From Anaerolineales bacterium (GTDB lineage Bacteria > Chloroflexota > Anaerolineae > Anaerolineales > E44-bin32): DNA of 58,552 bases. The stretch covers positions 1 to 58,552 of the forward strand of contig JARRJK010000014.1 of NCBI GenBank assembly GCA_037379555.1, given 5' to 3'. Positions 6,071-14,324 of the stretch are shown one piece after another. The number at the start of each line of letters is the position of its first letter. The first letter of the stretch is position 1. The notes below the pieces were generated by a model that was not told the DNA's origin, searched no databases, and saw nothing but the letters and a program-made list of their open reading frames with translations. The position numbers and the translations under genes were made by a program.

Positions 6071-6325
6071 TCACTCCAGGGTGATCGCGTCCTCGGGGCA
6101 CTGGAGGACGCAAGCTCCGCAGGCAATGCACCACTCGGGATTGTGAAAGATGACCACCCTATTCGGCCGGTCCGGCAACCAGCAGCCGACAGGGCAGACT
6201 TCGTAACATTGCCAGGTGCCTTTGCATTTCTCCGCATCGAAGTGAATCTGCAGTTTGCGCAGCGTCCGCGCCAGCTCAAGATGCTCCGTCAGGGAGCTCC
6301 AGAGTGTTGGATTGGCTTCGCTCAT
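6071..6325 (-). CDS. Dicluster-type ferredoxin (HgcB-like position), 84 aa
   Basis: Motifs CKGTWQCYEVCP and CIACGACVLQCP. The ATG at 6325 overlaps the upstream stop (ATGA). Confidence 0.85.
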   Translation of the reverse strand: MSEANPTLWSSLTEHLELARTLRKLQIHFDAEKCKGTWQCYEVCPVGCWLPDRPNRVVIFHNPEWCIACGACVLQCPEDAITLE

Positions 6326-7968
6326 CCCAACCATCCAACTGCGCGTGGGATCACCCAGTTCAGCGCGATCAGGGTCACCCCGATAATGGCTTCCCAACTC
6401 CAGTTAGCCTGCTCGCCGCGCATCAAGGGCGACATGCCCTGCAGTTCAGCGGCTGTGAACACGGATAATCCAGTCAATCCAACGATCCAGTGGAAGAACG
6501 ACAGGCGAGGCAGCGGGTTGAACAGCAGGGCATAGAAGGACAACCCGATCAGCGCGATCAGCGTGAGCGGGATGGCCTTGAGCAGCCCATCTCGTCCTGG
6601 CAGCCAGGGGTGCACGATGGCGTAGAAATACGACAGCCCCAGCAGGCTCCCCGTTATAGGCCAGAAATTCTCCCGCCAGAAGATGAGCACCGGCAGAAGA
6701 ATTAGCAGGGCGTAGAAGCCGAGCGTTACGGTGACCATCTCCAGGCGGTCCTTCAGCGGGAATTGGACCCAGCGCATCGCATCGGTCTTCTTCCGCTTGC
6801 GCTCCAGATATGCGGGAAGATCTCTGGCTTTAGCCGGACCCCAGAATACGCCCCAGCCGGTCTCATGCCGGATGCGCCACCCATCGACGCCGTTGGCACA
6901 AAGCTGCGGCAGGATCAGGGCATGATGGTCAACCTTCCCCTCGAGCTGCGCGGTCTTGACCGCGGCGATGACCTTCTCCGCTGTGAAATAACCCCCTCCC
7001 GCAGCGCACCAGACATTGATACCCGCCGAATCGGCAACCAGGATCCAGGCGTCCACCACGCCGTCGAGGGCCTTGACCAGGCGCCGCACGGTCAGGTCGA
7101 AATTCCCCGTCACCAGCACGGGCGATTTTCGGTTGGGATTCCCCACAGCGTACAATCCTGTTGCCACTTTCGGGTATGGCGGGATGATACGGAAGAAAAG
7201 CAGCCAGAGATCCATGAGCATTGTACGCAGCGTCACGCGGTGCTGCAGCTTCGGAACAAACCCGGCGTGGAGCTCGGCTGCCTCAAGCGGAGTTGCGCTC
7301 GATGGCTCCATCCCCGGCAGGCTGGCTGAGTAAACCACCAGGCTGCCCCCGAGGAACGATGCGCCGGTGCCTTCAACAAAACCGGCTTGCATCAGGGCTG
7401 CTTCAAAGTCGCGTAGCGGAGTCGTGGATGTGCGGGTTATCAGCCAGGTCAGGATCACCAGCGGTATGCGTATCAGACGGTAAACGAATCGCCTCAGGGC
7501 GGAATCCGGAATCACTTCGTCGGCAAGCATGAGCCGGCCACCTGGAGCCAGAAGGCTGGCGCACTTCCTCAGGACATACTGGCGTACTTCAGGGGACAGC
7601 TCACTGAACACCAGCGTTGAGACGATCAGGTCGAACCCCCCTTGCGGAAAATGATCCCCGACCTGGGTTGCGTCCATCCGCTTCAGGGTTACCTGGTCAT
7701 CAAAATCCAGCGCCTTGATTCTTTGCTGCGCGACAGCCAGCATCGAGGCCGAGGCGTCGATGGCGGTCACGATGGCGCCGCGTTCAGCCAGCAACGCAGC
7801 CAGCGTACCCGTCCCGCAGCCGATTTCGAGCACACGCACGCCGGGCCCTGCGGCACGTTCCGCGATCCACTGATGGACCCGCCGGATCCGGCCTAAGGTC
7901 AGCAAGCGAATCCCCCGATCGTAATCGGAGGGATTCGTCTCGAGCCACTTCATGAAGACTGTTGCCAT
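6322..7968 (-). CDS. Fusion of a class I SAM methyltransferase (CpaM-like) with an HgcA/CdhD-like corrinoid domain and about 5 TM helices
   Basis: VLEIGCGTG at about 7807-7833. GLYAVGNP..SPVLVTGNF.LT, cap helix GINVWCAAGGG (about 6991-7023), LILPQL, WGP..A.DLP. Hydrophobic C-terminus with PWLPGR. Confidence 0.85.
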   Translation of the reverse strand: MATVFMKWLETNPSDYDRGIRLLTLGRIRRVHQWIAERAAGPGVRVLEIGCGTGTLAALLAERGAIVTAIDASASMLAVAQQRIKALDFDDQVTLKRMDATQVGDHFPQGGFDLIVSTLVFSELSPEVRQYVLRKCASLLAPGGRLMLADEVIPDSALRRFVYRLIRIPLVILTWLITRTSTTPLRDFEAALMQAGFVEGTGASFLGGSLVVYSASLPGMEPSSATPLEAAELHAGFVPKLQHRVTLRTMLMDLWLLFFRIIPPYPKVATGLYAVGNPNRKSPVLVTGNFDLTVRRLVKALDGVVDAWILVADSAGINVWCAAGGGYFTAEKVIAAVKTAQLEGKVDHHALILPQLCANGVDGWRIRHETGWGVFWGPAKARDLPAYLERKRKKTDAMRWVQFPLKDRLEMVTVTLGFYALLILLPVLIFWRENFWPITGSLLGLSYFYAIVHPWLPGRDGLLKAIPLTLIALIGLSFYALLFNPLPRLSFFHWIVGLTGLSVFTAAELQGMSPLMRGEQANWSWEAIIGVTLIALNWVIPRAVGWLG

Positions 7969-8104
7969 GACCGCCTGGCCTGCCCGCTTCCTGCCTGAGT
8001 TCTACAAACCGCCCGGTCTTATTCTACTCCCCCAAGCAGCAAACGCCGCTTAAAACCATCCGCTGTCCAACGCCCTGCTCCTGCAGGCGGTGGATATTTG
8101 AAAT

Positions 8105-8129
8105 CAAAAACTCGCTGTTGCCAGCGAGT
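8105..8129 (-). terminator. Intrinsic terminator of the marR-ABC-HlyD operon
   Basis: Minus strand reads ACTCGCTG-GCAA-CAGCGAGT-TTTTG: perfect 8-bp stem, GNRA loop, U tract. Confidence 0.8.
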
Positions 8130-8145
8130 CCTTCATTCCAGACGG

Positions 8146-8171
8146 GCGATTGCCGCGTACGTGGCAATCGC
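8146..8171 (-). other. Stem-loop just after the HlyD-family stop codon
   Basis: Inverted repeat GCGATTGCC...GGCAATCGC. Confidence 0.5.
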
Positions 8172-8177
8172 AGGGAT

Positions 8178-9359
8178 TCAGTTGCTGGAGGAAACCTCAA
8201 TGTACGCTGTCATTCCCCAGCGCACCGCATCCGGGAAGATCTCATCCGGATGGACCTCAACCAGGTAGTTCACCCCCGCCCCTGGATCTGCCTTGGTGGC
8301 GATATAGGTGATCGCGCCCGGCAATTCAACCTCGGGCAGCGCATCGAACGTGATTACTACCGCCTCCCCGGTCTCGATCCGGGCCACATCGATCTCGTTC
8401 AGGTCGGTCGTCTCGACGACGAGTTCGGTCAGGTCCGCCAGCAGGGCGATCGGCTGGCCGGGGCCGACAAACTCCCCTGCCCGCACATAGACCTCGCTGA
8501 CGGTGCCCTCGAAGTCAGCGCGCAACTCGGTGTCAGCCAGCGCGCTTTCAGCTGCGCGCACAGCCGCCTGTGCGTTCGCCAGCCTGGCCTCTGCCAGCGA
8601 TACCGCCTGCGGATCGGGTCCGTTTTCAACCTTGGCATATTCACGCTCTGCCGAAGCCAGCTGTGCTTCGGCCTGCGCCAGCTTGGCATCCTCGACCGCT
8701 TGATCGATATCGGTCGGCGATCCGAGGTACCAGTTCAGGTTGCGCTGGATCGAATCGCGCTGCTTCTTGGCAGCGATCAGGTTCGAAAGCGCCAACGCTT
8801 TGCCGGCCTCCCCGCTGGCGCGGTCGTAGGCTTCCTGCGCCCGATCGACTTCTTCGTTGGCCAGGATCAGATTCGCCTCGGCCGCATCGATCGTATCCGA
8901 ACTGGCGCGGTAGCCCGGCTGCAGGACCTGCCAGTCATACTGAGCATCATCCAGCGCGTCGCGCGCGTTGGCCAGCACAAGCTGCGCCTGCGCTTTGGCG
9001 ATGTCCGCATTTTCAAAGAGCGCATCATACGCCTGCTGGGCGGTTTCAAGTTCTAACTGTGCCGCCGTGAGCGTCGCCTGCACCGCGTCCACGTTCCCCA
9101 GGCGCACCAGCACCTGCCCTTCTTCCACCCGGTCACCGCGTTCGACAAGCACTTCCCTGACCAGCCCGCCCCCGGGGAAGCTGAGCGTGGCATAACGGGT
9201 CGGTACGACAACCCCGGTTGCGCTTACGGCGGGTTCAAAATTCGCCAGTGTGTCCGGAGTGGTCGGGGTTGCGGCATCCGATGTCGAGCACCCTGCTAGA
9301 AAGAGTGCCAGCATCAGTGACAACAGCACCCAGATCGATTTCCTTCGTTCAACCTTCAT
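8178..9359 (-). CDS. HlyD/MacA-family efflux adaptor lipoprotein
   Basis: Lipobox LAGC, biotinyl-like GGLVREVLVERGDRV, long Ala-rich coiled coil, LRADFEGTV, VRWGMTA. AGGAG SD. Confidence 0.85.
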   Translation of the reverse strand: MKVERRKSIWVLLSLMLALFLAGCSTSDAATPTTPDTLANFEPAVSATGVVVPTRYATLSFPGGGLVREVLVERGDRVEEGQVLVRLGNVDAVQATLTAAQLELETAQQAYDALFENADIAKAQAQLVLANARDALDDAQYDWQVLQPGYRASSDTIDAAEANLILANEEVDRAQEAYDRASGEAGKALALSNLIAAKKQRDSIQRNLNWYLGSPTDIDQAVEDAKLAQAEAQLASAEREYAKVENGPDPQAVSLAEARLANAQAAVRAAESALADTELRADFEGTVSEVYVRAGEFVGPGQPIALLADLTELVVETTDLNEIDVARIETGEAVVITFDALPEVELPGAITYIATKADPGAGVNYLVEVHPDEIFPDAVRWGMTAYIEVSSSN

Positions 9360-9455
9360 CTTCAATCTCCTGAAACGCTTCCAGCGGTGCAGATCGACTC
9401 CACAGCGGAAAATCGTTTGAAATACGTTGCAGAACTGGAAGTACCTACCCATCGA

Positions 9456-11879
9456 TTACTCATAAGAAAGCACTTCCTGAATCGTCAGCCGGGCGGCATT
9501 GCGCGCCGGCAGGATGCTGGCGAAGAATGACAGGGCGACGACGGTGCCCAGCCAGATGGCGATGCCGAGCGGGGTGAAGACGAGCACCAGCTTCGACCCC
9601 ATCATCGCCTCACCGATGATGCGCAGCAGAAAGGCGCTGATCGGGAAGGAAAGCCCAATCGCCAGCACCCAGGTGATCAAGCCGATGATCAAAGCCTCTA
9701 CCACAACGGCCTGCATCACCACCCGGTCCACGGCGCCAATCGCCCGCATCACGCCGATCTCGCGCGTGCGTTCGAGCACGTTCATGCCCATCGTCCCCGT
9801 CAGCCCGATGCTGCCGACAAAGGCCGTTAAAAGGGCCATGATCAGCAGGAAGACGACCAGGATGTTGATCGCCTCGGTCGTGTCCTTGCGCAGGGTCTCG
9901 CCCGTCGCCACGCTGCTGACCTCGAAGCCGCGATCCCTCAGGTAGTCATCGATCGCCAGGCTGAGGCCTCCCAGGGCCTGCACATCGTGGGTGTCGGTGA
10001 CCAGTTTGAAAGAGGCTGCCTGGTTGGGGAGCTTGACCAGCTGGGAGATCTGGTCGAAATCGGCGTATGCGATCGGGTCACCCAGCATGCTCACAAAACG
10101 GAATACGCCCACAACCGTGAACGGACGCTCCCGGTTGCCCGGAATCTTGATCCTCAGCGCATCGCCAGGCTGCAGGTCCGGATACCACTCGTAGATCGAA
10201 TCTGACACCACGAGCGCATCGCGCTCACCCGCCTGGATCCAGCGCCCGGCAACCAGGTCCGGATTGAGCAGGAAGGTGTCCGAGGGCGGCGCGATGATCG
10301 AGATGTTGACCACCAGCTCGTCGTGCGCATCCAGGATCTCGCCTCCCGCCCCACCCCAGGCTTCGATTCCGGCCACGCCCGGGAAGGGCTCCAAGACCTG
10401 CTTCACCCGGCCGATGGAGTATGGCTGGCTGAACCCGATGGTGATATCGCCCATGAAGTACTGCATCAACTGGTCCATGAAGTTGTCGAGTGAGGCGCGC
10501 ACGTTGAACACGCCGATGAATACGCTTCCTGCAATCGTAAGCGTGAAGATGGTGAGCAGCAGCCGGCCCTTCTTGCGGAATGTATTGCGGATGGAAAGCA
10601 AGAGCGGCCTCGAGGTCCAGCGCATGCGGGCGACGATCCGGTTGAGCACATCGAGCTCGGTCGGCTTGTCCCCCGAGCGGTCGTCGCTGATCGCCCGGCG
10701 CACATTGATGCGTGAACCCTTATTGACCGGGAAAAAGCCCGCCCCGAGCGGCAGCAGGAACGCGATCAGCGCCTGCACGAAAATAGCCAGGGGAACGATG
10801 CGGAAGCCCTGCAGTTTAGCGCCCATCATATTCGCGACGAATTCAGCCAGCCCGTAGCCGGCGATCGCCCCCAGCGGGACGGTGATCACCAACGCGATCA
10901 GGCCGTAGGCCAGGATCAGGGCAAGGTACATCGCCATGATCTGCCGGCTTCGGCCGCCGACGAGCTTCATCACGCCAATCTGGCGCAGGTGTTGGGTGAG
11001 CAGTGCGTTGAGCGTGTTGATGATGAGCGAACTGCTGAGCACTGTGATCAACCCGCCCAGCACGCCCAGCACGCCCAGCACCGCCAGCACCGTGGAGGCC
11101 ATCGAGTTTTCGGTCGACAGGTTGGTATCGGTGCGGTAATGGGCGATCCCGTTGCGGTCCAGCCGCTCCTCGACCGTCGCCGCTACCTGGCGGATGTATT
11201 CCTCATTCCCGCCATCGCCCTGGACTGTCGCCAGCAGGTGGTTGTACGCTTCAGGCACGCCGTATTGGCGCAGCGTATCGAAGGTGACATAAGCGTTGGC
11301 GCCCGATTCGGGGTCGATGCCGCCGTTGGTCCCCAGGTCTGTGACCACGCCGACCACGCTGAGTTCATGACGGGTGCCGTCCGGCAGCTCGATCTCGACC
11401 CGGTCGCCAACCTGGAAGCCGGTGTCATTCAGGAAGTCCTGGCTGACGACAAGCTGGTCCTCGTCGGGCACAGTCACGCCATCGATAGCCGTCAGGGTGT
11501 TGATGACGCTGCCCTGATAATCACCCTTCGCCACCAGGTTGACGTGCTGCCACTGCCCATCAGGCTTACGAGCACGGATCGCCCACACCAGCTGGCCTTC
11601 GACATCTTCCACCCCCTGCGTACGGGCGATGATCCGGACCAGGTCTTCGTGGAAGGGTTCTGTTGCGACGTCAATGTTGACCGGGTTGACAGCCGCGTAG
11701 CTGATGTTGATATCCGAGCCGAGAATGTCATAGGTGGCGATGACCATGCCAATGGCGAATACGCCGACGGCGATGGAGGCGATCACCAGCAGAGTGCGCA
11801 GCTTGCTGTCCCACAGGTCGGACAGCACCTTGCGCCAGCGCGGTTTCAAGCCGCCGGGCAGCTGGCCTCCGTTCAGCAT
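9456..11879 (-). CDS. MacB/FtsX-like ABC permease (duplicated)
   Basis: RWRKVLSDLW..KLRTLL; two FtsX segments (RQIGVMKLVGG and ERTREIGVMRAIGA); PARNAARL. Confidence 0.9.
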   Translation of the reverse strand: MLNGGQLPGGLKPRWRKVLSDLWDSKLRTLLVIASIAVGVFAIGMVIATYDILGSDINISYAAVNPVNIDVATEPFHEDLVRIIARTQGVEDVEGQLVWAIRARKPDGQWQHVNLVAKGDYQGSVINTLTAIDGVTVPDEDQLVVSQDFLNDTGFQVGDRVEIELPDGTRHELSVVGVVTDLGTNGGIDPESGANAYVTFDTLRQYGVPEAYNHLLATVQGDGGNEEYIRQVAATVEERLDRNGIAHYRTDTNLSTENSMASTVLAVLGVLGVLGGLITVLSSSLIINTLNALLTQHLRQIGVMKLVGGRSRQIMAMYLALILAYGLIALVITVPLGAIAGYGLAEFVANMMGAKLQGFRIVPLAIFVQALIAFLLPLGAGFFPVNKGSRINVRRAISDDRSGDKPTELDVLNRIVARMRWTSRPLLLSIRNTFRKKGRLLLTIFTLTIAGSVFIGVFNVRASLDNFMDQLMQYFMGDITIGFSQPYSIGRVKQVLEPFPGVAGIEAWGGAGGEILDAHDELVVNISIIAPPSDTFLLNPDLVAGRWIQAGERDALVVSDSIYEWYPDLQPGDALRIKIPGNRERPFTVVGVFRFVSMLGDPIAYADFDQISQLVKLPNQAASFKLVTDTHDVQALGGLSLAIDDYLRDRGFEVSSVATGETLRKDTTEAINILVVFLLIMALLTAFVGSIGLTGTMGMNVLERTREIGVMRAIGAVDRVVMQAVVVEALIIGLITWVLAIGLSFPISAFLLRIIGEAMMGSKLVLVFTPLGIAIWLGTVVALSFFASILPARNAARLTIQEVLSYE

Positions 11880-13834
11880 CCGCCGTTCACCTTGCGGCGG
11901 TTTTCTTCGAAGCGGGCGTTCGCCACATCATTCAAGCGGTTGCGTGTCAGCGGCGATCCGTCGATCAGGTCGAAGAAGGAGGCGCGCGGCAGCATCGCCA
12001 GCGTCGCACCTTTCGCAGAAGCGCGCACACCGGCGATCGAGTTCCCGCCGCGCGTGAGCTCAACCTCGCCGAAGAACTGACCCACGCCCAGTGATGCCAG
12101 GCTGATCTCGCCGCAGCTTGTATTCTGAACAATGATCTCGACCGCGCCCTCCACGACCATGCAGAAGTGTTCGACCGGTTCCCCCTGGCGCAGGATCAAG
12201 CTGCCGGGAGCGAATTCTCGTTTGGTTGCTGCGTGAGTGGCCGCCAGCATCTCCGGATGCGACAGCTGCGGCAGCGCACGGGCGATCGCCGAATCGATGA
12301 TCTCGCCATCGGAGAGAATCACGGTCTGGTCAGTGCGCTTGGTGATCGCCGGATCGTGGGTGACGATCAGGATCGTCTTGCCTTCGTCCGCCAGCTCTTC
12401 GAACAGGTCGAGCACAACGTCGGCCGAGCGCGAATCGAGATTGCCGGTGGGCTCATCGGCCAGGATGATCGAGGGATCGTTTGCCAGCGCACGGGCTACG
12501 GCGGCGCACTGCTGCTGCCCGCTGGAGACCGAGCCGGGAAGCTTGTGCACGTGGTCCTCGAGCCCGACCCGCTTCAGCAGCTCCAGCGCGCGATCCATGC
12601 GTTCCCCGAACGGATACACGTTGCAGTAATCCATCGGCAGCATCGTGTTCTCAAGCAGCGTCAGCGTCGGCAGCAGCTGGAAGAACTGAAAGACCACGCC
12701 CATGTTGCGCCCGCGCCACAGCGCACGCTGGCTCTCGGTCATGTCATAGATCCGTTCATTTCCGACGACGACCTCGCCGCCGGTTGGATGATCGATGCCA
12801 GTGATCATGTTGATCAGCGTCGACTTTCCGCTGCCCGACTTGCCGACGATCGAAATGAACTGCCCATACTTGAGCTGCATGCTGATCGATTTCAGGGCCA
12901 CGAACTTCCCGGCCGGGCTTTCATAGACTTTATCGACAGCTCGCATCAGAACCGCCGGGTAATCCCCGTGCCCGTTGGACCTTGGGCTTTTTGCGTTCAC
13001 CCTCTGGATTGGCTTGGCTGTAGGCTGCTCGTCCGAAAGATCGATGGCTTTTCCAGCCGGGTCATCCAGAACACGGGCGCCCGCATAACGTCCGCTTGCC
13101 GTGCCATTTCCGTTCGGGCTTCCGAACGCGCCGTCAATGATGTGCAGGCGGCGCGAGAAGCGCGGCGCAAGGCTTTCATCGTGGGTGACCATCACGACCG
13201 TCTTGCCATCCCCGACCAGGCGTTCGAAGATCTGCAAGATGGTCTCGGCCGTGACAGTGTCCAGGTTGCCTGTGGGTTCATCGGCGATGATCAACAGCGG
13301 ATCATTGACCAGAGCCCGGGCGATCGCTACGCGCTGTTTCTGCCCACCGGAGATATGCGCCGGGATCTTATAGGCGTGCTCGGCGATCTCGACCTGCTCG
13401 AGCAGTGAGAGGGCCTTCTCCTTGCTGATCACCGGATGGTAGGTGCCGAGGAAATCGGGCGGCAGCATCACATTTTCGAGCAGTGTCAAGGATGGCATCA
13501 GCTCGAAGGATTGGTAGACGATGCCCACGTTTTTCCCGCGCCAGCCCGCCCGCGCATCCTCGTCCAGGGAGTGAATGGAGACGGCTGCGTTGCCATTCCC
13601 GTTGTGCCCAAAGTAGGTTACCTCGCCGGCCGTAAGCCGGCTGACACCCGAGATCATATTCAGCAGCGTGGTCTTCCCGGCGCCTGATTTTCCGGTGATT
13701 CCGAGGAATTCGCCCTGGTTGATCTCGAGATTGATGTCACGCAGCGCGACGAAAGGTCCATCGCCGGTGGCGTAGGCTTTCTGTACATTCTTCATTTGTA
13801 TCAGTACGTCGTGCGGTTCGTTCTTGAGATTCAT
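11873..13834 (-). CDS. ABC ATPase with two tandem LolD/MacB-type NBDs and a C-terminal cNMP-binding-like domain
   Basis: Walker A GKSGAGKT and GKSGSGKS; ADEPTGNLD twice; C-terminal ILRQGE..FCMVVEG.V..FFGE. Confidence 0.85.
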   Translation of the reverse strand: MNLKNEPHDVLIQMKNVQKAYATGDGPFVALRDINLEINQGEFLGITGKSGAGKTTLLNMISGVSRLTAGEVTYFGHNGNGNAAVSIHSLDEDARAGWRGKNVGIVYQSFELMPSLTLLENVMLPPDFLGTYHPVISKEKALSLLEQVEIAEHAYKIPAHISGGQKQRVAIARALVNDPLLIIADEPTGNLDTVTAETILQIFERLVGDGKTVVMVTHDESLAPRFSRRLHIIDGAFGSPNGNGTASGRYAGARVLDDPAGKAIDLSDEQPTAKPIQRVNAKSPRSNGHGDYPAVLMRAVDKVYESPAGKFVALKSISMQLKYGQFISIVGKSGSGKSTLINMITGIDHPTGGEVVVGNERIYDMTESQRALWRGRNMGVVFQFFQLLPTLTLLENTMLPMDYCNVYPFGERMDRALELLKRVGLEDHVHKLPGSVSSGQQQCAAVARALANDPSIILADEPTGNLDSRSADVVLDLFEELADEGKTILIVTHDPAITKRTDQTVILSDGEIIDSAIARALPQLSHPEMLAATHAATKREFAPGSLILRQGEPVEHFCMVVEGAVEIIVQNTSCGEISLASLGVGQFFGEVELTRGGNSIAGVRASAKGATLAMLPRASFFDLIDGSPLTRNRLNDVANARFEENRRKVNGGC

Positions 13835-13850
13835 ATGGCTCAACACGGAT

Positions 13851-14324
13851 TTATGAGGCCCACTCCGAATTCTTTTCGGCCAGGGTCTCAAGATATACAA
13901 TCATCGCCGACATCAATCGAATGAGGGTTCGACTGTCCTCTTCTCCCAGATGATCAACAACCCCCACCAGGCTTTCATGCGCTTCGCGCAGCAGCACCTC
14001 CGCCAGTTTCTTCCCCTTCGGCGTCAGACCGACCAGCACCATGCGTCGGTCGTTCAAGTCCGGCAGGCGGTGGATGTAACCTGCTTCCTCGAGCGGATTG
14101 ATCAGATGCGTGACTCCGGCCGGGGTGATCTGCATCTGATTGCTCAGGTCGGAAGGCGTCACACCCTGCGCGCCGTCGCTCAGCATCAATTCCAGCGTGA
14201 CGAGGAATTCGAACTCGCTGCGCTTCAAGCCTTGAAAATCCTTCTTTTCCCACCGCAGTCTCGAAAACTGCTTCAAGAGCTGGAACAACTCGCGCGTGAT
14301 CTCGGTTGACGATGAATCGAGCAT
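13851..14324 (-). CDS. MarR family transcriptional regulator
   Basis: wHTH TPSDLS...VTHLINPLEEAGYI.R..D..DRR..V.LTPKG. Confidence 0.9.
   Translation of the reverse strand: MLDSSSTEITRELFQLLKQFSRLRWEKKDFQGLKRSEFEFLVTLELMLSDGAQGVTPSDLSNQMQITPAGVTHLINPLEEAGYIHRLPDLNDRRMVLVGLTPKGKKLAEVLLREAHESLVGVVDHLGEEDSRTLIRLMSAMIVYLETLAEKNSEWAS

Follow-up and report, generated by a model that had tools for sequence, protein, structure and literature searches.

A CpaM methyltransferase fused to an HgcA-like corrinoid protein and coupled to a ferredoxin in an Anaerolineales genome

The window analyzed here is a stretch of 58,552 nucleotides (nt) from contig JARRJK010000014.1 of an Anaerolineales genome in the phylum Chloroflexota (assembly GCA_037379555.1). 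On its minus strand, to which all window coordinates below refer, lies one intact open reading frame (ORF) of 548 residues (6322..7968) that joins a CpaM methyltransferase, a linker, an HgcA-like corrinoid domain, and a five-helix membrane domain. It is followed by a separate gene for an HgcB-like ferredoxin of 84 residues (6071..6325). An earlier note, made from the letters of the window, had described this pair as a self-contained methylation module in which an S-adenosylmethionine (SAM) methyltransferase is fused to an HgcA-like corrinoid membrane protein and coupled to a ferredoxin. The three motifs that it listed for the fused ORF (VLEIGCGTG, GINVWCAAGGG, and PWLPGR) are all present. Below, A stands for the corrinoid protein and B for the ferredoxin; a hyphen joins fused parts and a slash separates genes, so that the arrangement in the window is CpaM-A/B.

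Both products were compared with NCBIfam models, whose cut-offs are 180 bits for CpaM (NF043040), 285 for HgcAB_like (NF043039), 275 for HgcA (NF040863), and 99 for HgcB (NF040864). Residues 4–215 (7324..7959) form a class I SAM methyltransferase domain with VLEIGCGTG as motif I. They match the CpaM model at 284.5 bits over profile positions 3–214 of 216, above the cut-off, and the fused protein scored 287.5 bits when the genome was searched with the same profile. The best of several class I methyltransferase matches is Methyltransf_25 from Pfam (residues 46–144, E 1.2e-20). Residues 253–524 (6397..7212) hold the corrinoid-binding domain and most of the membrane domain. They match positions 3–287 of 350 in the HgcAB_like profile at 273.6–275 bits, and residues 267–386 match the Pfam family CdhD (PF03599, E 2.7e-16). 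The HgcA model scored the fused ORF at 180.0 bits, below its cut-off and below the HgcAB_like score. In the ferredoxin, the match is to positions 281–350 of the HgcAB_like profile, its HgcB-like tail. The A part stays under 285 bits because the ferredoxin, which adds 70.3 bits, is a separate ORF. Since the A part and the ferredoxin match adjoining parts of one profile, the two genes together (profile positions 3–350) are best described as CpaM joined to a split HgcAB-like protein.

The cap helix GINVWCAAGGG (residues 316–326, 6991..7023) contains Cys321, the presumed cobalt ligand. W320 and C321 are invariant in all 33 rows of an alignment of relatives (A2), in which PxLPGR and R408 are also conserved. 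The PWLPGR motif belongs to a set of five predicted transmembrane helices (residues 405–544, 6337..6756), close to the count of about five given in the earlier note. An AlphaFold2 model built from an 89-row alignment has a pLDDT of 92.8 and a pTM of 0.86, and DSSP places the long C-terminal helices at residues 405–430, 432–455, 461–482, 488–510, and 519–544. For a two-domain chain, this pTM suggests that the two domains are modeled in a defined mutual placement. The sole stretch with pLDDT below 50 is residues 222–234 (7267..7305), a disordered linker between the domains; a linker had been noted there, but its description as Pro-rich was generous for about three prolines. Foldseek ranks the HgcAB model deposited by Cooper et al. 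(9a0b, E 2e-14) first among its matches to the fused model, ahead of small-molecule methyltransferases bound to SAM or S-adenosylhomocysteine. Among experimentally solved chains, the closest in sequence is the large subunit of the corrinoid iron-sulfur protein (CFeSP; 4djd_C, E 1.3e-13). A complex prediction of residues 1–221 against residues 240–548 (alignment A1, no controls) gave a score of 0.00 and a mark of 0.32, which is evidence neither way. Within the stretch covered by the CpaM profile, residues 157–178 (7435-7500) form a long, mostly hydrophobic helix (ALRRFVYRLIRIPLVILTWLITR) that may contact the membrane or the membrane domain.

The ferredoxin probably starts at the ATG at 6325, which is part of the ATGA bearing the stop of the 548-residue ORF, and its frame ends at 6071; the coupling by overlap described earlier is thus borne out. 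A TTG start at 6397, given in the ORF list, was dropped as not conserved among relatives. The product matches Fer4 (E 4.9e-12) and reaches 40.9 bits with the HgcB model, under the cut-off of 99. Its second cluster motif is the canonical CxxCxxCxxxCP (CIACGACVLQCP). The first (CKGTWQCYEVCPVGC) has the form C-x5-C-x3-CP-x2-C, in which another residue stands in place of the second Cys and one more Cys comes after CPxx; this form is common to 8 of 24 aligned ferredoxin parts from the database and occurs in only some A-B fusions. The cluster type is uncertain because motif 1 has lost its second Cys and gained one past CPxx. The protein ends seven residues past motif 2, and it has neither the Cys of GVGC nor a C-terminal Cys pair, both of which (GVGC and a CC tail) are present in the HgcB of two Chloroflexota genomes (L037 and L039). 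In HgcB, C73, C94, and C95 are reported to be crucial (PMC11588087). The earlier description of the ferredoxin as atypical fits on both counts, one non-canonical cluster motif and the missing C-terminal cysteines.

Because the genome is a metagenome-assembled genome (MAG) in 242 contigs (90% complete), an assembly chimera had to be excluded, and a frameshifted fusion or a decaying pseudogene was weighed along with it. Contigs from other marsh-metagenome runs bridge the domain linker (record 8 of X2, 6733-8250, and record 16 of X3, 7086-8250), the ATGA junction is bridged by contigs of four runs, and the bridging contigs of other runs contain no indels at either junction. A full-length fusion in one frame was found in 30 of 60 relatives' genomes: 23/27 of the same genus (27 genomes from 27 species), 4/9 others of the same family, and 3/24 from other families of the order. 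Every readable relatives' locus with the fused ORF (18/18) keeps N[VI]WCAAGGG, and in 17 of these the ferredoxin ORF is separate and follows directly (the same 17 by tblastn); the eighteenth locus ends 100 nt past the stop of the fused ORF. The frame and spacing of the A/B junction vary among relatives, yet there are always two ORFs. At one more relative's locus (L023 of genome G012) the junction of a 640-residue open frame is masked (X), and a possible triple fusion is unreadable. Full-length fusions form more than 120 clusters in the protein database, at 66–100% identity, and the few records with an organism name are from Anaerolineales or Anaerolineae. With these observations and the high pLDDT of the model, an artefact of any of these kinds can for practical purposes be set aside. 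The CpaM-A fusion and its ferredoxin are a genuine, lineage-wide gene pair of Anaerolineae-type Chloroflexota. The fusion is neither rare nor unnamed, since NCBI records label such Anaerolineae proteins and fragments "corrinoid protein-associated methyltransferase CpaM."

We searched a database of 1.84 billion representatives with the HgcA-like part alone, which gave 1176 matches at E <=0.001. Among the best 150 representatives, 87 passed a coverage filter, and the 63 that failed were omitted from the trees described below. The 87 include 5 CpaM-A, 7 CpaM-A-B, 39 A-B, and 6 X-A-B proteins, where X is an N-terminal domain of no identified family before A-B; the rest are canonical-type or fragmentary A proteins. 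The CpaM-A-B triple fusions are 582–644 residues long. Five metagenome proteins of 477–539 residues (P0291, P0293, P0349, P0356, and P0376) belong to a starred A-B clade in which an N-terminal extension of 150–190 residues replaces CpaM, and the cap helices of this clade are unusual (e.g., NVWCSSL).

Gene neighborhoods were then compared in two ways. A scan of one genome per species used the pattern G[IV]NVWCAA, and the best 80 of at least 598 relatives were inspected; this set is biased toward CpaM, as the query itself contained CpaM. Among these 80 loci, CpaM was part of the protein (28) or lay immediately upstream in the same orientation (45) in 73 of 74 with a non-Lys cap helix and was found in 0/6 with the Lys type (NVWCAAGK). 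For a CpaM-independent sample, an even draw of 301 Desulfobacteria genomes was searched with no model but the HgcAB-like one. Matches at E <=1e-40 were present in 148 of them, eight above the HgcAB_like cut-off, and 30 loci were fetched. A strong CpaM match was present at all eight loci above the cut-off, one as a 594-residue triple fusion and seven with CpaM 15–200 nt upstream. CpaM was absent from all 22 canonical hgcA loci. Four of those 22 (L151, L152, L156, and L157) have weak generic class I methyltransferase matches (21–49 bits with the CpaM profile) 1.5–2.4 kb downstream. Across three sets of loci, CpaM was found near canonical hgcA in 0/22, 0/6, and 0/2 cases.

The combination of CpaM, corrinoid protein, and ferredoxin takes three fusion states and is spread over 17 or more named phyla. 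CpaM-A/B is found in Chloroflexota (Anaerolineae and Ardenticatenia), Thor-, Prometh-, and Hermodarchaeota, and Poribacteria. CpaM/A-B is found in Myxococcota, Thermodesulfobacteriota, Dehalococcoidia, Acidobacteriota, Actinomycetota, Bathyarchaeota, Thermoplasmatota, Heimdallarchaeota, and others. CpaM-A-B is found in Desulfobacteria. Asgard loci of the CpaM-A/B type (L080-L090, L093, and L112, from Thor-, Prometh-, and Hermodarchaeota) have the cap helix NVWCAARG. The Thorarchaeota genome of L083 (G361) encodes, besides the fused form, a second, stand-alone CpaM-like gene (C1:1075530-1076165) that scores 154.5 bits, below the cut-off. Because the three parts are repeatedly fused in different combinations, a Rosetta-stone pattern, they appear to work together as one module. 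No family recurs downstream of the module across phyla (any Pfam family occurs in at most 2 of 53 neighbors), and with the three parts variously fused elsewhere this agrees with the earlier view of a self-contained module.

The same neighborhoods bear on a narrower role, in which CpaM and the ferredoxin would serve in repair only, re-methylating Co(II) reductively with SAM while another, unlinked methyltransferase is the working donor. The activation module of methionine synthase (MetH) is an analogy for such a role. Co(II) forms are reported to need reductive activation (PMC11588087). The genome itself has a second PF03599-type match at the start of another contig (G000:C19:40-417, plus strand), whose counterparts in relatives are open frames of 443–470 residues (one of 712) with SVLTAWAAGK that resemble the CFeSP large subunit. 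This is probably a corrinoid protein of the Wood-Ljungdahl type, and methyl-folate chemistry would then be at hand as a donor. No second methyltransferase recurs beside the module, however, and the presence of CpaM at 8/8 loci of the CpaM-independent sample, together with its repeated fusion, fits a core catalytic part better. HgcAB has also been reported to turn over with SAM alone (PMC11588087). A repair-only role is accordingly unlikely, and CpaM as a working part of the module remains the reading we prefer.

Some features tie the window pair to canonical HgcA and HgcB, and others set it apart. The cap-helix Cys equivalent to Cys93 is present (C321), as is a C-terminal transmembrane domain (the five long helices of the AlphaFold2 model). 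Six high-stringency cap-helix motifs of HgcA all contain a Lys, summarized as N[VI]WC[AS][AGS]GK (Capo 2022, PMC10087281, in its available text), and NVWCAAGG in the window has no such Lys. The ferredoxin has neither a Cys73-type Cys nor a C-terminal Cys pair. A search of the window's own genome (90% complete) with the HgcAB-like model turned up no canonical hgcA.

In a quick tree of 95 rows the window had fallen in a non-canonical clade (SH-aLRT 88). That tree was set aside after an approximately unbiased (AU) test on the same data, in which a better tree, with a log-likelihood 24 higher (p 0.83), held the window's clade with canonical HgcA. Because that run beat the quick tree, two careful trees were built, one of 56 rows, which has a basal polytomy, and one of 53 rows with more lineages. 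In both, a canonical HgcA clade (100/100, starred) leaves the window outside. In the 53-row tree the window falls in a Chloroflexota CpaM-A/B clade (100/99, starred), which joins the A-B fusions in a clade of 27 rows (100/97, starred); an Asgard CpaM-A/B clade stands apart (98/95, starred), and two CpaM-A/B bacteria (L078 and L079) are sister to canonical HgcA (91/86). The cap helix of these two unclassified bacteria reads NVWCAAGGGKF. Forcing the window's clade together with canonical HgcA on the 53-row data cost 28.4 log-likelihood units (p-AU 0.073), so that this grouping is disfavored, not formally rejected. The deep branching of the HgcA family is only partly resolved.

These results speak to whether the pair is a working mercury methylase, that is, a variant HgcAB with a SAM-handling domain in cis. 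It has the fold family, cap-helix Cys, PWLP motif, and ferredoxin partner in common with HgcAB, and a grouping with canonical HgcA survived the AU tests. SAM is reported as the methyl donor of purified HgcAB, acting via methylcob(III)alamin with Co-thiolate ligation (PMC11588087, 2024), in agreement with a premise of the earlier note. Against this stand the scores below the HgcA and HgcB cut-offs, the missing Lys, the short ferredoxin, and the position outside the canonical clade. The earlier note had also relied on reports that organisms with fused hgcAB make no methylmercury, and the available text of both sources agrees for the two organisms tested, Pyrococcus furiosus and Methanococcoides methylutens (PMC4646819 and PMC5893877), with the qualification in Podar 2015 that the failure of P. 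furiosus to methylate is no proof against catalysis by fused HgcAB. We regard mercury methylation as quite unlikely here. By sequence and placement, the window protein is best assigned not to canonical HgcA but to the database-named CpaM/"HgcAB-like" family; the earlier inference of a paralog, drawn from the K-to-G change in the cap helix and the ferredoxin, holds, and neither careful tree puts the protein inside the canonical HgcA clade; grouping with canonical HgcA, together with mercury methylation, was a result that the note had named as overturning it.

The reading that we favor, with moderate confidence, is that the module passes methyl groups from SAM to a Co(I) corrinoid and on to an acceptor at the membrane, is primed by the ferredoxin, and belongs to the CpaM/HgcAB-like family and not to canonical HgcAB. 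In the proposed sequence, the ferredoxin would reduce corrinoid Co(II) to Co(I). The fused CpaM domain would bind SAM and methylate the Co(I) corrinoid of the HgcA-like domain, where Cys321 would ligate the cobalt from below. Methyl-Co(III) would then hand the methyl group on to an acceptor, which would be met at the five-helix membrane domain or by way of it. The roles of CpaM as cobalt loader, of the ferredoxin as reductant, and of the membrane domain in presenting the acceptor, as well as the direction of transfer, are what we infer from the parts and their coupling. Because the Cys ligand of HgcA is invariantly kept, our best guess for the acceptor is an electrophilic metal or metalloid ion and not a carbon or thiol nucleophile, to which we would give somewhat less than an even share of that reading.

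Four points weigh against this scheme. The function of the CpaM family is so far implied by its name, and the relation of the SAM site to the cobalt site in the fused protein is likewise deduced from the domains. Canonical HgcAB uses SAM without a separate methyltransferase (PMC11588087), so that the need for a dedicated loader is not obvious. In the ferredoxin, the second Cys of the first cluster motif is missing, which may mean a 3Fe-4S cluster or a shifted potential. The affinity of the window's clade also shifts between the A-B fusions and canonical HgcA, from 100/97 (starred) in one careful tree to a polytomy in the other, with AU p values of 0.83 and 0.073. To these may be added that the window's own neighborhood, described below, is unlike that of most of its genus.

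In the 53-row tree, CpaM-bearing forms are found on all deep branches: in the Chloroflexota and Asgard clades, in Poribacteria, and in L078/L079. Because of this, the tree, whose root and backbone are only partly resolved, suggests that canonical HgcAB may have lost CpaM. A broader and more doubtful proposal is that the module of CpaM, corrinoid protein, and ferredoxin is the ancestral form of the HgcA family, a SAM-driven donor of Cys-ligated methyl-cobalt to a non-mercury metal or metalloid or another electrophile at the membrane, and that canonical HgcAB is a derived branch without CpaM. If so, the unexpected use of SAM by HgcAB would be explained.

The module is preceded by an operon (8178-14324) with a MarR-type regulator (13851-14324), an ORF of 675 residues that clusters with ABC ATPases, an ORF of 807 residues that is presumably an FtsX/MacB-type permease, and an HlyD-type adaptor (8178-9452). 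The MarR and HlyD assignments come from Pfam. After the HlyD gene lies a terminator-like hairpin (8105..8129; -24.8 kcal/mol, z -6.75, followed by UUUUU), which would form the 5' boundary of the module's transcription unit. The strong terminator claimed for this site in the earlier note thus has a stable fold and a U-run, but a consensus terminator scan of the window did not list it. The closest relative (G018) shares the MarR/ABC/HlyD operon upstream and a major facilitator superfamily (MFS) gene downstream. An MFS transporter was rejected as a conserved partner, since it is downstream in only 2 of 19 same-order loci (L018-L036), once in convergent orientation.

A different operon is frequent among relatives. 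In 16 relatives' loci with flanks of about 8 kb, the recurring order is TetR, fusion, ferredoxin, an F420H2-dependent quinone reductase-like gene (PF04075), patatin, a 90-residue membrane protein, an ABC-2 exporter, and HlyD, with TetR in 11, the reductase-like gene in 10, and patatin in 8. It was seen at L049-L059, from the same genus and one other family (e.g., L050:5585-15299), and is absent in this form from the window. Across phyla, 14 of 54 immediate upstream genes encode regulators (6 TetR, 5 ArsR-type, and 3 MarR; the neighbor of L079, the 55th, was omitted for an invalid coordinate). The ArsR-type regulators are in Thor- and Promethearchaeota and Poribacteria. Asgard CpaM-A/B loci often have an ArsR-type or MarR regulator directly upstream. 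The regulators and exporters hint at a link of the module with sensing and export of a small toxic compound, although related loci are not independent.

The frequent operon also raises a third alternative, in which the methyltransferase domain acts directly on an end substrate such as a quinone or lipid, and the corrinoid protein and ferredoxin carry out reduction or dehalogenation on the same substrate. Most of the genus has the quinone reductase-like and patatin genes in the operon, and structural matches of the CpaM domain include Coq5 (TM 0.74), UbiG, and PmtA (TM 0.75), which are small-molecule, quinone, and lipid methyltransferases. Matches of this kind are typical of the class I fold as a whole, however, and the operon partners are limited to one genus or family and absent from the window. 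The invariant cap-helix Cys points instead to methyl-cobalt chemistry of the HgcA type. We judge direct methylation of an end substrate to be improbable and retain the relay from SAM through the corrinoid to a membrane acceptor.

The literature search, which did not extend to supplements, found no paper on CpaM, on HgcA-like proteins with a fused or linked SAM methyltransferase, or on the cap-helix variants NVWCAAGG and NVWCAARG. In their available text, Podar 2015, Gilmour 2018, McDaniel 2020, Lin 2023, and Capo 2022 (PMC10087281) treat fused hgcAB as an A-B fusion without mercury methylation and use it as an outgroup; the word "methyltransferase" has 0 occurrences in the available main text of Podar 2015. 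Such proteins may already be listed in the Hg-MATE catalogue and in the supplementary trees of Lin 2023. What is new here is the description of CpaM, A, and B as one module in at least 17 phyla and three fusion states, and the split of CpaM from canonical hgcA. That split between the paralogs and canonical HgcAB bears on how HgcA-type corrinoids are fed with SAM and on the identity of survey look-alikes. Because the window protein scores 180 bits with the curated HgcA model, surveys with score-only cut-offs for hgcA would probably count it. If our reading is correct, CpaM adjacency would be a simple genomic marker for telling true hgcA from look-alikes in metagenome surveys, the pair would be a tractable two-gene system for loading a corrinoid from SAM, and a hypothesis on how mercury methylation arose would be at hand. 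Members of the family are plentiful in Anaerolineae from marsh and sediment metagenomes and are present in Asgard archaea too, and a methylation reaction of some environmental weight may then lie behind the family.

Among known systems, MetH reactivation resembles the proposed module in that SAM and a low-potential electron carrier re-methylate cobalamin. MetH differs in that its SAM domain has another fold, the enzyme is soluble, and SAM is not the working donor. The CFeSP large subunit (AcsC/CdhD-type) shares the corrinoid-binding fold PF03599. Unlike the window protein, it is soluble and has SVLTAWAAGK in place of the Cys cap helix, and its methyl group comes from methyl-tetrahydrofolate via a dedicated methyltransferase (MeTr) and is handed to nickel; the window's genome has its own partial CFeSP-like copy on another contig. 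HgcA and HgcB of the Pseudodesulfovibrio mercurii ND132 type are closer, with a corrinoid domain of the CdhD superfamily, a Cys cap helix NVWCAAG, a C-terminal membrane domain with PWLP, and a small ferredoxin encoded directly downstream. SAM is the methyl source of HgcAB (PMC11588087), a likeness to which the window, known here from its genes, would conform through its CpaM domain. It differs from HgcA in having that N-terminal domain and no Lys after NVWCAAG, and from HgcB in having no Cys tail. The closest system is the NCBIfam pair of CpaM (NF043040) and the HgcAB-like fusion (NF043039), the latter being the "fused HgcAB" of Podar 2015, as in P. furiosus. The three parts are the same, the CpaM cut-off is passed, and CpaM is directly upstream of or fused to the corrinoid gene, as it is throughout the family. 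In the named arrangement CpaM/A-B, the ferredoxin is part of the corrinoid protein, whereas in the window A carries CpaM at its N terminus, B has a gene of its own, and the A part alone falls just below the family cut-off. The window thus holds an architecture variant, CpaM-A/B, of a database-named relative of the mercury-methylation proteins.

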